DNA from: an uncultured bacterium
Lineage (GTDB): Bacteria; Patescibacteriota; Minisyncoccia; Phycocordibacterales; GCA-2401445
Assembly (NCBI GenBank): GCA_937952265.1
Contig: CALFYW010000016.1
Span: forward strand, 77,633-141,632
Reading direction: 5' to 3'
DNA: 64,000 bases
Both the position numbers and the translations under genes were made by a program. Below the pieces are notes generated by a model that was not told the origin of the DNA, made no database searches, and saw nothing but the letters and a program-made list of their open reading frames with translations. This document shows positions 4,384-49,789 of the stretch, piece by piece (position 1 is the stretch's first letter; the number at the start of each line of letters is the position of its first letter).

Positions 4384-6183
4384 ATGGAAGCGCACACTAT
4401 CACTAAAACTATTGCAACTATTAAATCAGCGATTACAGACCTCCTGTCTGATCACGGGATCAGTGCTCCAGAAGTTAAAGTAGAAAAACCTGCTGATTTC
4501 AAACATGGTGATATATCAACCAATGTTGCTCTGCAATACGCGAAAGAGGTCAAGATGAATCCTTATGATTTTGCCTGTCTCATTTGTGAATATTTAACTA
4601 CAAAGAAATTTGTAGGCATCGAGAAAGTTGAGGCAGTGAAGCCCGGATTCGTCAACGTCACTTTTAGTGATATTTTTTACCGAGATCTGGTGCAAGAAAT
4701 TACACACTCTCCTGAAACATATGGAAGAAACAACTCACTAAGCAATTCTAAATGGGTTGTTGAGCATACATCACCCAACCCAAACAAGGCGATGCATCTG
4801 GGTCATCTACGTAATAATCTAATCGGAATGAGCCTTGTACGCATTCTAGAATGGAATGGTGCAGATGTTGTCTCTGACGCAGTAGATAATAATCGTGGAA
4901 TTGCAATTGCCAAGCTTATGTGGGGGTTTCTTGCTCATATGAAAAAAGAAGAAAATATCCCAACCGATGTGGGATATTGGGTATCAAATTCACAAAAGTG
5001 GTATGCACCAGAAGAAAAAGGATTGCTACCTGATATCTTTGTCACAGAATGCTACGTACTTGGAGAATCTGATTTTAAGAAAAACAAAGATGTTGAAAAT
5101 GCTGTGCGCAAATTAGCTGTGCAATGGGAGGCTGAAGATAAAGATGTGCGATTGTTATGGTCTCATGTGCTTAAATATGCATATGAGGGTATGAATAGAA
5201 CACTTACCCGATTAGGTAATCACTGGGATAAGGTTTGGCATGAACATGAACATTATCAAGACGGAAAAAAATATATATATGAAGGGTTGGAAAAAGGTAT
5301 ATTTAAAAAACTCGAAGATGGCGCAGTTTTAACACACCTCGAACAATATGGACTGCCAGATACTATTCTGTTAAAGAACGATGGAACATCATTGTATATT
5401 ACACAAGATATTGCACTTACTGCATTAAAAAAACAAAACTACAATGCAGATAAGCTTGTCTGGGTCATCGGCCCAGAGCAGTCTCTTGCAATGAGACAAT
5501 TATTTGCTGTATGTGAACAGCTCGGAATTGGAAAAATAAGTGATTTTACGCATGTTGCTTATGGATATGTTGGACTGAAAGCTGAAGGTGGTGGCTTTAA
5601 GAAAATGTCCTCTAGGGCAGGGACAGTCGTACTAATTGACGATGTAATTAATGAGGTAAAGGTGAAAATTACTCAAAGGTTGAAAGACAATAAAATTGAA
5701 CAAGGAAACAGCGGTGTGGGTAATCGTGCAGAAAAAATGGCACTCGCGGCTGTTAAATTTAATATCTTAAAATCTGACAGGGTGCAGGATTTAACCTTTG
5801 ATGTAGAGCAGTCTATAGAAACTACAGGAGACTCGGGTGTATATATTTTGTATGCATATGTTAGGACACAAGCAATTTTGCGCAAAGCACAGAATCTTCC
5901 TTCTGTGCCAGACCATGTTGATTCTGGTCTAGAGATTGATGTTCTAAAACAAATAGCACATTTTCCGAATATAGTTGACCGCGCAAAAAAAGATCTATCT
6001 GCGCACCATATTGCACAATATTTACTTGAACTTTGTTCAGCTTTCAACTCATGGTATGGGAAAGAAACTATTCTTGATGGCTCAGAAAAAGAAGGGTACA
6101 AACTAGCTGTGACAAAATCAGTTGGTATTGTTATTAAAAATGGATTAGCAATCCTCGGGATTGATACTGTTGAAGAAATTTGA
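4384..6183 (+). CDS. argS: Arginine--tRNA ligase
   Basis: Class I HIGH-type motif 'HTSPNPNKAMHLGHLRN' and KMSK-like 'KKMSSRAGTVV'; 599 aa. Confidence 0.9.
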   Translation: MEAHTITKTIATIKSAITDLLSDHGISAPEVKVEKPADFKHGDISTNVALQYAKEVKMNPYDFACLICEYLTTKKFVGIEKVEAVKPGFVNVTFSDIFYRDLVQEITHSPETYGRNNSLSNSKWVVEHTSPNPNKAMHLGHLRNNLIGMSLVRILEWNGADVVSDAVDNNRGIAIAKLMWGFLAHMKKEENIPTDVGYWVSNSQKWYAPEEKGLLPDIFVTECYVLGESDFKKNKDVENAVRKLAVQWEAEDKDVRLLWSHVLKYAYEGMNRTLTRLGNHWDKVWHEHEHYQDGKKYIYEGLEKGIFKKLEDGAVLTHLEQYGLPDTILLKNDGTSLYITQDIALTALKKQNYNADKLVWVIGPEQSLAMRQLFAVCEQLGIGKISDFTHVAYGYVGLKAEGGGFKKMSSRAGTVVLIDDVINEVKVKITQRLKDNKIEQGNSGVGNRAEKMALAAVKFNILKSDRVQDLTFDVEQSIETTGDSGVYILYAYVRTQAILRKAQNLPSVPDHVDSGLEIDVLKQIAHFPNIVDRAKKDLSAHHIAQYLLELCSAFNSWYGKETILDGSEKEGYKLAVTKSVGIVIKNGLAILGIDTVEEI

Positions 6184-6194
6184 TTTAAGGGAGC

Positions 6195-6224
6195 AACCCC
6201 GCCCGCGCTAGCGGGCGGGGTTTG
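6195..6224 (+). terminator. Rho-independent terminator of argS
   Basis: GC hairpin ccccgcccgcg-cta-gcgggcgggg followed by TTTGTG. Confidence 0.6.
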
Positions 6225-7195
6225 TGCGCGCACGGGTGGGAGCCGTGTACCAACACGGCATGGGGCAAGCACATACTCAAATGAGCCTCGGGCTATTTCC
6301 GCTAGGAGCGTCCAGGGCTAAAGGACGAGCGCCATCGTCAATCGAAGCCACCACACGCCGAAGCGGAAGCGACACCACAAACGCAAGAATGAAAACTAAA
6401 AGAGGGGGTTGTGCGAGGGCGGACTCCGAAGGCACGTTATACGAAGCCCTAAACGTTAGACGCATCACTACTTTTTACGACAAGCCGTAAACTCTCTGCG
6501 ACCTCTGCGAGGAGGAGCCCGAAGCTGGGGGAGAAAATCGTTTTCTCCCCCAAACAGAGGCGCTGCCCGAGCACCCGCCCCGCAGGGCGGGAGTGCGAGG
6601 AAAAGCAGCGCACATAGGCACCTAGGCGCTCGTAGCCCTAGCGGAAATAGCCCGAGGCGGATGCCGAGGGTGCCATCCCTTTAGCCATGAACGCAAAACA
6701 AGTAGAATAGACCTGTGGCACCACTTTACGAATGACGCCACTTCCACGACTTAGTGGAAGCCGACCGGGCCCCGTTTTCCGCTCCTCAGTTCTTTTCTAT
6801 TGTGGCGGGGGGATTCTTTTTCAAAATTGTATGGGCGGAAAACGGGGCGAGGGCGGAGCGCCGAGCTTGTCGAGGCGCTGGCGGCATGAGTTAGCATCAC
6901 CACGCGATCGGAGCGTACGAGGAAGTACAAAGCCACCACGCACGCGGCGCGTGCGCCTGTCAGACTCTGGCGGAAAGTCAGTCGCGTTGCGACTGGAAGA
7001 AGGTTCGAACTTGGTCGTACAAAGTAGCCAACAAGGATAAAAGAAGGTGTTCAAGTGGAAAAGAGACTAATAAAGGCAATGCGCAACTCAAAAAACTCTC
7101 ACTTAAGTCAGCGATTGAACTCGGAGAGGCAATCTACAAACGGTCTCCTTCAGATCGGTGGAACGAGCTATGGACTCATAAAAACAGAAAAAATT
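6225..7195. other. ORF-less GC-rich block with extensive local and long-range self-complementarity. Candidate large structured RNA or non-autonomous mobile element; the strand is unresolved
   Basis: GC content is far above the flanking DNA. There is no ORF longer than 102 aa and none has an RBS. Bulged inverted repeat 6283-6333 vs 6624-6660 (GGCGCTCGT..CCTAGCGGAAATAGCCCGAGG), plus hairpins ccccgttttccgc/gcggaaaacgggg, gccgtg..cacggc and gggggagaaaatcgttttctccccc. Confidence 0.4.
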
Positions 7196-7196
7196 A

Positions 7197-7216
7197 ATCC
7201 CCACAATCGGGGATTA
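7197..7216 (-). terminator. Rho-independent terminator of the RHH gene (minus strand)
   Basis: aatccccgattgtggggatt followed on the minus strand by aattttttctgttttt. Confidence 0.55.
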
Positions 7217-7236
7217 AATGAGAGTGCTGATTTTTG

Positions 7237-7407
7237 CTATTCTTGATTGATGCAAGTTTCAAGCAAGGATCCATTATCAATCATCCTTTGAAACTGTGCT
7301 TCAAGATAGTGCACCAATGTTTGATTCTTTTGATGTGCTTTTTTCTGAAGCTCTTGGAGTACCTCATCAGAGAAATTGAGGCAAAAGGTTCTTTTTACTA
7401 CTGCCAT
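7237..7407 (-). CDS. Small ribbon-helix-helix (CopG/Arc/MetJ-like) DNA-binding protein, 56 aa. Below the ORF-track length cutoff
   Basis: Strong RBS aaaggagg 8 nt upstream of ATG. Sequence MAVVKRTFCLNFSDEVLQELQKKAHQKNQTLVHYLEAQFQRMIDNG fits a beta-strand then helix RHH fold. Followed by its own terminator. Confidence 0.55.
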   Translation of the reverse strand: MAVVKRTFCLNFSDEVLQELQKKAHQKNQTLVHYLEAQFQRMIDNGSLLETCINQE

Positions 7408-23494: not shown

Positions 23495-23661
23495 GTCAGG
23501 AATAAATTTTCTAACGAAAATTTTTCACGACCCTAGCTCGGTATGCTCGCCTTCTCGCTTCGCTCAAAACTCGCATATACCTCCGCTTTTCAAGTCCCGA
23601 CGCTCGTACCGAGCTTCAGTTCCGCAAAAACACCCAGGAGAACCTGGGTGTTTTTAGCAAT
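23495..23661 (-). mobile_element. About 170-bp GC-rich element abutting the 3' end of tRNA-Asp, bounded distally by a 19-nt duplicate of the tRNA 3' end at 23476-23494
   Basis: Direct repeat gcgcggccgacgggacttg at 23476-23494 and inside the tRNA at 23662-23680. Internal core GAGCGAAGCGAGAAGGCGAGC shared with the tmRNA-linked element. Confidence 0.45.
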
Positions 23662-46272: not shown

Positions 46273-46274
46273 AG

Positions 46275-46346
46275 TGCGCGTGGAGGGATTCGAACCCCCA
46301 ACAACCCGCGTATAAGGCGGACACTCTACCATTGAGTTACACGCGC
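46275..46346 (-). tRNA. tRNA-Ile (anticodon TAT)
   Basis: Acceptor GCGCGTG/CACGCGC, D-stem ACTC/GAGT, anticodon stem TCCGC/GCGGG with loop CTTATAC, T-stem GGGGG/CCCTC. Confidence 0.65.
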
Positions 46347-49152: not shown

Positions 49153-49548
49153 GGGGATGATTGGCCTCGACAAGAGTCTGCATATAATGGTGCACGCCGA
49201 GTTCCAGATACTCGTTAAACAGTCTGGAAATAAGAACTGCAAACACTGTAGCTTCTAAAGTAAAATCATTTGTTTCTCCGTATTTTACGGCGAACGATTT
49301 TGCTTTCGCTTACGCAAAAGCCTAAGCGACATCGTCTTACTCTCCTCCTAAAGGGAGTAAACACGGTGTAATCACTTTTAGGATAGCCATATAAGCGCCT
49401 ACTTATATGGCGAACACTAAGGATCGGAATATGAACATCTTGTCTTTTTCTTAGTTCATATCCTTAAAACCTTCGAAAAAGACTAAACGTTGTAGATATC
49501 TTTATATGTTTCTTTTGCACCCGGGTTCGATTCCCGGCATCTCCACAA
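49153..49548 (+). ncRNA. ssrA: tmRNA (SsrA)
   Basis: Begins 2 nt after the smpB stop. 5' GGGGATGATTGGCCTCGAC tRNA-like start. Tag reading frame GCG AAC GAT TTT GCT TTC GCT TAC GCA AAA GCC TAA (ANDFAFAYAKA). 3' T-arm GGGTTCGATTCCCGG and acceptor CATCTCC-A pairing with the 5' GGGGATG. Confidence 0.8.
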
Positions 49549-49549
49549 A

Positions 49550-49739
49550 TACAAAACACTCTGCCATTTATGGTGGAGTGTTTTGTGTTTGCTGGTATAT
49601 GAGGAGGAAGCGTAGCTTCCGGCGGGAATCGAAAGGCGGAGCGTTGTCGAGCGAAGCGAGACCGCGAGCCGGGGTCGAGAGCACTTAGCATTTTGTTACG
49701 TAGCATGCTACGTAACAAAATGGTTAGTGACTCGTGACC
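49550..49739 (+). mobile_element. About 190-bp GC-rich element inserted at the tmRNA 3' end, bounded by a 20-nt duplicate of the tmRNA 3' end at 49740-49759
   Basis: attcccggcatctccacaaa occurs at 49530-49549 (tmRNA 3' end) and again at 49740-49759. Internal terminator hairpin 49551-49590, core GAGCGAAGCGAGACCGCGAGCC, and a perfect 30-nt palindrome at 49691-49720. Confidence 0.5.
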
Positions 49740-49789
49740 ATTCCCGGCATCTCCACAAACACAGTGCATACCCAAAATATTGGAGTATG

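Follow-up and report, generated by a model that had tools for sequence, protein, structure and literature searches.

The window analysed here is a stretch of 64,000 nt from a contig of an uncultured bacterium, whose ArgS sequence places it among the Candidate Phyla Radiation (CPR) bacteria, with a Roizmanbacteria metagenome-assembled genome as the nearest named relative. Directly behind argS (stop codon at 6181–6183) lies an element of ~845 nt at positions 6188–7032 (+), consisting of a module A, a linker and a module B. We read it as one member of a family of large GC-rich non-coding RNA elements that seems not to have been described before, and put the probability of this reading at about 0.6. 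The element was delimited by nhmmer from full-length homologues in independent contigs, with its 5′ and 3′ limits set where the flanks of homologous loci become unrelated. The original prediction, made from the letters of the sequence, had a GC-rich block at 6225–7195; the block is real, but it has to be moved to 6188–7032; positions 7033–7195 are a spacer with a GC content of ~0.40 that is not conserved at any homologous locus.

The jump in GC content that had been estimated by eye is borne out by calculation: GC is 0.54–0.635 over positions 6200–6999, compared to 0.365–0.40 in argS and 0.35–0.40 downstream (200-nt windows). Apart from the last 500 nt of the window, it is the sole run above 0.56 GC in the 64 kb, which has a mean of 0.434 and a standard deviation of 0.044 (300-nt windows). 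On the + strand of the block A exceeds T, with an AT skew of up to 0.37, and G is about equal to C. The claim that there is no credible open reading frame (ORF) also holds, as we found only overlapping ORFs of 41–102 amino acids on both strands. A protein gene in another frame can be rejected: stops interrupt all six frames, the only database relatives of the block's ORFs are equally spurious ORFs inside homologous blocks, in differing frames, and the helices described below covary. Indels among the homologues appear, by eye, independent of codon phase. The predicted folding energy is below that of dinucleotide shuffles on both strands (z = −3.9 for + and −6.0 for −, 20 shuffles per strand), and the four hairpins named in the original prediction are all present.

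Dozens of "hypothetical proteins" of 60–196 amino acids without a Pfam domain (for example P0121–P0145) are ORFs of the element in assorted frames and strands. These entries in public collections are annotation artefacts.

A family of elements in CPR-type contigs

The family was found through these artefacts. An exact-sequence look-up of the block's spurious ORFs led to a 119-residue cluster mate on unrelated contigs, where window positions 6264–6690 are matched at ~89% identity in a different gene context. A protein search with the 119-residue artefact ORF gave 12 further matches, whose contigs contain full-length homologues that are 64–77% identical and come from five lineages. The 20-mer GCGAGGGCGGACTCCGAAGG, identical in those homologues, is present in at least 120 metagenome contigs; it served as the bait of the scan (window 6413–6432), so its invariance in loci L024–L143 is circular by construction. 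With a hidden Markov model (HMM) built from the first six sequences, nhmmer sorted the copies into 49 full-length ones, 38 cut by a contig end, 43 with the 5′ part only and 40 with the 3′ part only. The "5′ only" class is mostly a divergence artefact, because 57 of the 59 module-A copies with enough downstream sequence have at least one hallmark of module B.

Members of the family are 0.7–1.0 kb long and GC-rich and share one plan: the motif AGGGAG, a hairpin (P0), a module A of ~500 nt and a module B of ~300 nt. The GC content of module A averages 0.585, compared to 0.425 in the upstream genes (n = 57). So far the family is found only in CPR/Patescibacteria-type contigs. Three conserved 19–20-mers had no match among 2.9 million viral contigs, and BLAST searches of phage and plasmid collections with the block found none. 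The original prediction had offered a composite as one possibility. The element is indeed composed of two modules, A and B, and this is not the composite of tRNA- and tmRNA-linked mini-elements that was meant.

Relatives of the host organism differ in what follows argS, so the block is not fixed at this locus. Contigs L008 and L009 (ArgS 91% identical) end inside P0. Locus L010 (87%) keeps only the first ~16 nt of the element behind argS, where AGCAACCCCGCCCGC is followed by ~2 kb of other genes and then a fragment of module B. In L003 and L012 (75%) the GC-rich block after argS is a different one, the remnant of an IS3 transposase on the opposite strand. In L004, L006 and L007 (53–64%) there is no GC-rich block, and neither blastn nor nhmmer finds a match to the element. 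The idea that the block is an insertion is thus only partly right: its presence at the site does vary among relatives. Insertions and breaks of synteny recur on the 3′ side of argS; in L003 (7474–8224) and L012 (7740–8490) the minus-strand IS3 remnant consists of OrfA and a truncated OrfB and is followed by a Fic-domain gene.

That our block is itself decayed foreign DNA, a pseudogene or insertion-sequence (IS) remnant from a GC-rich donor, has next to no chance of being correct. The IS3 remnants at the same position and the atypical GC content speak for such an origin. The stops in six frames and the indels that seem to ignore codon phase are set against it, as are compensatory changes and co-deletions that point to selection on structure.

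Module A has a conserved, strand-specific fold

RNAalifold, applied to a set of 53 non-redundant module-A sequences, predicts 75 base pairs, 31 of which show compensatory changes. Among the 70 pairs that were counted, 97.8% of the alignment cells hold a standard pair, and this falls to 32–46% when the 3′ partner is slid by 1–3 columns. Double-sided changes occur in 30 pairs, whereas the mean in shuffled alignments is 16.7 and none of 500 shuffles scored as high. The covariation score is 0.229, compared to 0.091 for shuffled alignments and at most 0.058 for slid ones. Relatedness among the sequences inflates shuffle tests of this kind; the slide control and the compensations specific to single helices are independent of kinship. 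The fold also has a strand: G.U or U.G cells number 268 and A.C or C.A cells 15, and canonical cells make up 97.8% when the + strand is read and 90.9% when its complement is read. From the excess of G.U over A.C, the + strand of the window is the folded strand. Unpaired positions are rich in A (0.32, with U at 0.16). Module A therefore has a conserved, strand-specific and complex fold, and the proposal of a large structured RNA is upheld by this strong covariation among 53 homologues.

At the 5′ boundary of the element is the Shine-Dalgarno-like motif AGGGAG (6188–6193, +), 5 nt past the argS stop codon, with which essentially all of ~100 copies begin. It is followed by P0 (6195–6222, +), a hairpin of 12 bp with a CUAG loop. 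A GC-rich hairpin occupies this position in most copies, varying in length and sequence. The original prediction took it for the argS terminator, but it recurs at the same position at unrelated loci and is part of the element; it has no U-run, and a terminator scan did not score it as an intrinsic terminator. In P1, UGUGC (6223–6227) pairs with GCACA (6269–6273) on the + strand and encloses GCGCACGGG...GGGGCAA. Compensatory changes affect alignment columns 118/176, 119/175 and 128/170, and the helix has the variants UGCGC/GCGCA, GUGCAC/GUGCAC and GUGUAC/GUACAC. An optional hairpin within it, P1a (6242–6259, +), is missing from about half of the members.

The sequence around P0 and P1 had suggested an ORF-less class C group II intron inserted behind the argS terminator, a reading that we now regard as highly improbable. 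Like such introns, which have ORF-less forms, the element occurs in several copies at the 3′ ends of co-oriented genes, and a hairpin, UUU and GUGCG follow one another at 6195–6228. The hairpin and AGGGAG are, however, conserved at unrelated loci and belong to the element itself, and GUGCG is base-paired in a helix, UGUGC/GCACA, that covaries. No RF00029 or group-II-D1D4 model matched window 6000–7400 at E ≤ 10 or ten related loci at E ≤ 2, nor was there an Intron_gpII or D1–D4 match in the full set of 20 related loci. By eye there is no domain V/VI-like hairpin near the conserved 3′ end, and no reverse transcriptase was seen among the annotated neighbour ORFs, a minority of the neighbours being scanned. 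Patescibacteria are reported to lack group II introns altogether (Nakagawa et al. 2026, PMC13011429). A group I intron was rejected as well: RF00028 has no match, and the element lies past stop codons, not within genes. A LAGLIDADG gene follows the element only in L013 and L014.

The long helix P2 joins 6285–6306 to 6637–6658 (+). It is a perfect 22-bp duplex in the window and, together with GAGCGCC/GGCGCTC at 6327–6333/6625–6631, makes up the bulged long inverted repeat that was noticed at the outset. Its 18 modelled pairs are 98.3% paired and four have double changes. Many members drop one U-A pair of P2 on both strands (GGGC-AUUUCC/GGAAAU-GCCC). P3 (6327–6333 with 6625–6631, +) has five pairs, all 100% paired and three with double changes; P2 and P3 together close a domain of ~290 nt (6334–6624). 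A miniature inverted-repeat transposable element (MITE) or an IS-derived element was considered and rejected. The ends of the element (AGGGAG.../...GUAGCC) are not inverted copies of each other, there are no terminal inverted repeats, no duplication is visible by eye, and the 22-bp inverted repeat is internal and behaves like an RNA helix, in which a base pair is co-deleted.

Within the closed domain is a small hairpin, GC-GGAA-GC, with a GNRA-type loop (6363–6370, +; alignment columns 282–289), which is GGAA or GAAA across members. The most conserved block of the element (6404–6436, +) comprises hairpin P4 (6404–6427) and, after it, GAAGGCACG; P4 has a GAGG loop, a bulged G and three G.U pairs that are invariant. 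The block is identical across five independently found lineages. After an optional variable domain (6437–6503, +), absent in 8 of the 53 members and poorly conserved in the others, come a purine-rich conserved strand CUGCGAGGAGGAGCCCGAAGC and hairpin P5 (6526–6552), which together occupy 6505–6552 (+) and include the invariant strand CGAGGAGGA. P5 has 11 pairs, five of them with double changes. P6 (6560–6566 with 6605–6611, +) encloses P7 (6573–6596) and GCGAGGAAAAGC, and double changes are found at four of the five pairs of P6 and at all eight pairs of P7.

A further helix, P10, crosses P2. Its 5′ strand GCGUCCAGGGCUAAAGG (6308–6324, +) is a 17-nt segment just inside P2, and its 3′ strand CCUUUAGCCAUGAACGC (6678–6694, +) lies outside P2 at the end of module A. 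Each P10 strand forms a more stable duplex with its own partner (−22.9 kcal/mol) than with partners from other sequence classes (−14.1 kcal/mol; permutation P < 0.0005), and compensation is specific to the class–for example, GCCCUUGG/CCAAGGGC and GGCUUAUGG/CCAUAAGCC. The crossing of P2 and P10 reflects a pseudoknot, two pairings that alternate or a contact between molecules. In the window copy the P10 3′ strand has GAACGC where most members have GGACG.

Placement, module B and the 3′ end

The gene upstream of the element is co-oriented with it at about 35 of 38 loci (31 clusters). These genes belong to unrelated families; among their products are ArgS, a cation efflux protein, a type III restriction Res subunit, an IS transposase and, by eye, a type I HsdR-like protein. 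In ~58 of 73 non-redundant copies the stop codon of the upstream gene ends between −25 and +1 nt of GGGAG, with offsets clustering at −15 to +1 and a sharp cut-off at +1, where a TAG stop shares its G with GGGAG. Because copies sit only 0–25 nt past stop codons, there is no room for a conserved promoter. In the window no + strand promoter or intrinsic terminator is predicted between 5900 and 7500, and so read-through from the host gene is the simplest inference.

The element also behaves as a repeat. Two full copies occur within 12.7 kb in L119, along with two solo B modules, and L049 has one full copy and three B modules. In related strains, one and the same upstream gene can be followed by different subfamilies (L140 compared to L093, and L016 compared to L045), which suggests that dispersed copies recombine. 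Many contigs end within the element. The linker between A and B can hold cargo: in L120 (2745–5698), downstream of the type I HsdR-like gene, a 2.1-kb cassette is located between the two modules. By eye, the products of this cassette are a putative restriction endonuclease and a putative N6/N4 DNA methyltransferase.

Module B (~6761–7032, +) is ~300 nt long. It starts with a long hairpin (6761–6856, +), whose arms 6761–6782 and 6835–6856 enclose a conserved, A-rich loop (6783–6834) containing a poly-C tract of variable length. This tract ranges from C6 to C10 among copies (for example at L030 5616, L055 3992 and L066 533), and the variation could be a slippage-prone length change. The 52-nt loop is inverted, between inverted repeats of 13–22 bp, only in the window and in L001, which is the same organism; 40 copies have the consensus orientation. 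Two other assemblies of the same organism, compared over 11 kb, differ from the window at only four positions (6788, 6789, 6799 and 6802), all of them in this loop. With its inverted loop and weakened P10, the window copy may be partly decayed.

Beyond the long hairpin, the core of module B has two direct repeats, CACCACGC-N-GGAGCGUrCG, at 6898–6919 and 6934–6955 (+). Globally aligned with MAFFT, module B is too noisy for RNAalifold, and an alignment anchored at the 3′ end contains only one invariant stem, of 3 bp; apart from the long hairpin, a fold of module B is unsupported. The module closes with a terminal motif GGAAGAAGGUUCGAAC...GUACAAAGUAGCC (6995–7032, +), and the sequence GAAAWAGGUUC and the end point near 7032 are common to most copies.

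We considered whether the element is a device that benefits its host in cis, as part of the 3′ untranslated region (UTR)–a giant terminator, an insulator or an mRNA stabiliser, perhaps with an outward promoter, resembling REP/BIME sequences. Its place directly behind a co-oriented gene and the GC-rich hairpin at its start fit this. In ~50 copies the promoter-like sequence TTGGAA/TGGAAA-N16-18-TAYRAT is found at a fixed position at the 3′ end, and at several loci tRNA genes begin 1–25 nt past that end. Against this, the promoter criterion is loose, so that 31% of shuffled sequences pass it, and the window copy, whose hexamers are degenerate, does not; P0 has no U-run; and a conserved, pseudoknotted core of 500 nt with invariant single strands would be superfluous for a stabiliser or terminator. 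REP/BIME sequences, too, are repeated, GC-rich and structured, occur after co-oriented genes and are sites of rearrangement, but the element is 20–30 times larger, has a complex core with a crossing helix, and no RAYT gene was seen among its annotated neighbours. We consider a 3′-UTR device unlikely.

In other genomes the 3′ end of the element borders on tRNA genes, on genes for serine recombinases, on a LAGLIDADG gene or on the tmRNA-linked mini-element. Of 78 module-B ends, 15 have a tRNA gene in the 300 nt downstream, where ~1.7 would be expected. Large serine recombinase genes or fragments (with Resolvase, Recombinase and Zn_ribbon_recom domains) are present at 31 of 135 loci, in a recurring layout in which module B is followed by an inverted fragment of a recombinase C-terminus, a recombinase gene in the same orientation as B, and an inverted tRNA gene or another inverted B; the flipped mirror image is also seen. 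Such units lie at L119 3619–6400, L122 2–3836, L094 11386–13386, and L065 115–2843 and 8405–10826. Each recombinase gene is flanked on both sides by copies, in inverted orientation, of its final ~50 codons; the two flip states are seen on different contigs, and the stop codon of the gene overlaps with the 3′ terminus of a tRNA gene or of module B. This unit may be self-inverting or IS-like, targeting the 3′ ends of structured-RNA genes. Because it ends against plain tRNA genes too, we read the recombinase unit as a separate element. We also set it aside as an RNA-guided partner of our element: no more than 31 of 135 loci have it nearby, it is seen in either orientation, and plain tRNA genes are abutted in the same manner.

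These recombinases speak for a different explanation, in which the element is a mobile element or recombination substrate at the level of DNA or single-stranded DNA (ssDNA), whether MITE/PATE-like or an attachment region of a serine recombinase, its hairpins count as DNA structures and any RNA is incidental. Cargo between A and B in L120, and between the P0 remnant and the module-B fragment in L010, fits this, as do the tolerated inversion of the hairpin loop in the window copy and, in module B, the pair of direct repeats and the scarce covariation. Most copies, however, have no recombinase nearby, and there is none in the 64-kb window. The recombinase unit is likewise found next to tRNA genes where that side has no module B, and so it looks independent. 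The ends of the element lack terminal inverted repeats, with no target-site duplication visible by eye, and the 22-bp repeat lies inside it. The ~11 helices of module A, its GNRA loop, crossing helix and invariant single strands far exceed what known DNA recombination sites need. Integron attC sites and IS200–IS605 ends were rejected on similar grounds, the element having ~845 nt and ~11 helices and no IntI or Y1 gene being noted among the annotated neighbours. A DNA-level element is, on balance, improbable.

Some of the same observations weigh against an RNA element, and others should be set beside them. The folded strand was assigned from its G.U pairs, but G.T wobbles also form in, and stabilise, ssDNA folds, so this asymmetry alone cannot separate an RNA from an ssDNA element. 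Module B is conserved in sequence, with two direct repeats and little covariation, and might work as DNA. As judged by eye, a joint of one nucleotide and a linker of 21 nt make it sterically demanding to form P2 and P10 at the same time in cis, and what we call a pseudoknot could instead be an alternative or intermolecular pairing. For a repeat, it is also a point against the element that the 64-kb window contains a single copy (the family HMM finds no second). The 120 loci were fished with an exact 20-mer, a procedure that misses divergent members and biases the apparent breadth of the family. Transcription, strand and ends are predictions from sequence.

Relation to known RNAs and probable nature of the element

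Searches against known RNA families gave no identification. With cmscan and the 4227 families of Rfam 15, only the tmRNA (49153–49548) and tRNAs reached the gathering score in the window; within 6000–7400 there was only noise at E ≤ 10 (terminator-like matches and miRNA models), and no Rfam family matching the element was found at 20 related loci. GOLLD, ROOL, HEARO, OLE and raiA had no covariance-model match either at the gathering score or at permissive E-values, and cmscan matched the block to none of RNase P RNA, SRP RNA, 6S RNA, tmRNA and rRNA. The open-access literature text that we searched contains no description of the element. The family thus matches no Rfam family, we rate it a new class, and its nearest analogues are functional, not homologous.

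A far-diverged form of some universal housekeeping RNA, for instance RNase P RNA or a piece of rRNA, would account for blocks that are strongly conserved across lineages whose ArgS proteins are only ~60% identical, for assemblies that break inside the element as they do at rRNA genes, and for the adjoining homing-endonuclease and integrase genes, which also sit at rRNA and tRNA genes. This is nevertheless very unlikely, with no Rfam match at E ≤ 10, several diverged copies on single contigs, and the element missing from the site in close relatives. RNase P was considered because GGCGGAAAGUC (6971–6981) resembles CR-I; only a minority of members have the insertion that contains this stretch. 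A tmRNA-like acceptor stem formed by the 5′ and 3′ ends was also rejected: it fits L018 alone and is, by eye, not general.

The closest comparison is with ROOL and GOLLD, large ornate bacterial non-coding RNAs for which cryo-electron microscopy structures exist (PMC12286853). They share with our element a size class of 0.6–0.8 kb, many helices, pseudoknot-type contacts, the lack of an associated protein gene, and a neighbourhood of tRNA genes and mobile DNA (tRNA genes at 15 of 78 ends of the element). P10, which may form more easily between molecules, would recall their intermolecular contacts. In contrast to them, our element has no model match, is found on chromosomal CPR contigs with no viral matches, starts a few nucleotides past a stop codon without a promoter of its own, and has two separable modules.

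If the element is an RNA, it would be transcribed by read-through as a 3′ extension of its host mRNA (here that of argS), and would probably be cut out at its conserved ends to act as a self-contained molecule. By analogy, it could serve as a ribozyme, a ribonucleoprotein scaffold or a self-assembling RNA. It would persist as a repeated, recombining, semi-selfish element rather than as a single-copy housekeeping gene, and integrating elements would treat its 3′ end like that of a tRNA gene. The full form of this proposal, for which we see even odds, is a new class of pseudoknotted, promoter-less RNA of ~0.85 kb, pervasive in CPR/Patescibacteria, borne in 3′ UTRs and spreading or recombining as a repeat, whose core is possibly a ribozyme or self-assembling RNA, whose P10 forms a pseudoknot or an intermolecular contact, and whose 3′ end mimics that of a tRNA and so attracts integrases and homing endonucleases.

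CPR/Patescibacteria genomes are tiny, streamlined and AT-leaning. Keeping one or several GC-rich non-coding elements of 0.85 kb is costly in such genomes, which speaks for their having a function or being effectively selfish. To our knowledge, every earlier class of large ornate bacterial RNA gave new biochemistry: RNase P, introns of groups I and II, HEARO (the guide RNA of IscB), and the nanocages of ROOL and GOLLD. Our element has unusually strong covariation and a testable anatomy, with fixed ends, a crossing helix and optional domains. It accounts for contig breaks in metagenome assemblies of CPR bacteria, and it marks a hot spot of recombination and integration that shapes synteny in CPR genomes.

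Its likeness to tRNA and tmRNA genes as a landing site is one of position. Recombinase stop codons abut the 3′ end of module B as they abut tRNA 3′ ends on the same contigs, and the module-B end is also abutted by a LAGLIDADG gene and by mini-element homologues. The two kinds of site differ in that neither ARAGORN nor Rfam calls a tRNA-like structure at the end of the element, where the motif GGUUCGA has, by eye, no flanking T-stem. In L073 and L045 the element is followed, 21 and 236 nt downstream, respectively, by homologues of the tmRNA-linked mini-element. The motifs that the original prediction saw as shared between the block and this mini-element do not stand up, as the best local alignment scores 20 and shuffled sequences average 20.2; the link between the two is positional, not one of homology.

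The mini-element in the window is an insert of ~190 bp (49549–49759), GC-rich, which follows the tmRNA gene and ends in a repeat of the tmRNA 3′ end (attcccggcatctccacaaa, at 49530–49549 and 49740–49759). It looks like the scar of an element that integrated into the tmRNA gene. A weak homologue is located by a tRNA cluster at 23519–23622, and clearer ones are those in L073 and L045. In L013 the LAGLIDADG gene starts directly after our element, and a 20-bp tandem duplication (tgttataggcttggctatcg twice; 5128–5215, minus strand) shifts the frame at the LAGLIDADG motif, marking either a pseudogene or an assembly artefact.

Downstream of the element in the window is an orphan ORF for 63 residues (7055–7246, +), a singleton cluster with AAGGTG upstream. 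It was rejected as a remnant of the L013 LAGLIDADG gene, to which its similarity is not significant (BLASTP E = 0.37). This ORF converges on a minus-strand gene for 56 residues (7237–7407), labelled ribbon-helix-helix in the original prediction, and neither is conserved beside other copies of the element. The two have a hairpin in common (7194–7217), which scores as a terminator for the minus strand only. Elsewhere in the window, ARAGORN predicts a tRNA-Ile with anticodon TAT at 46274–46346 (minus strand), a tRNA that is uncommon in bacteria, where AUA is usually decoded by a lysidine-modified CAT tRNA.

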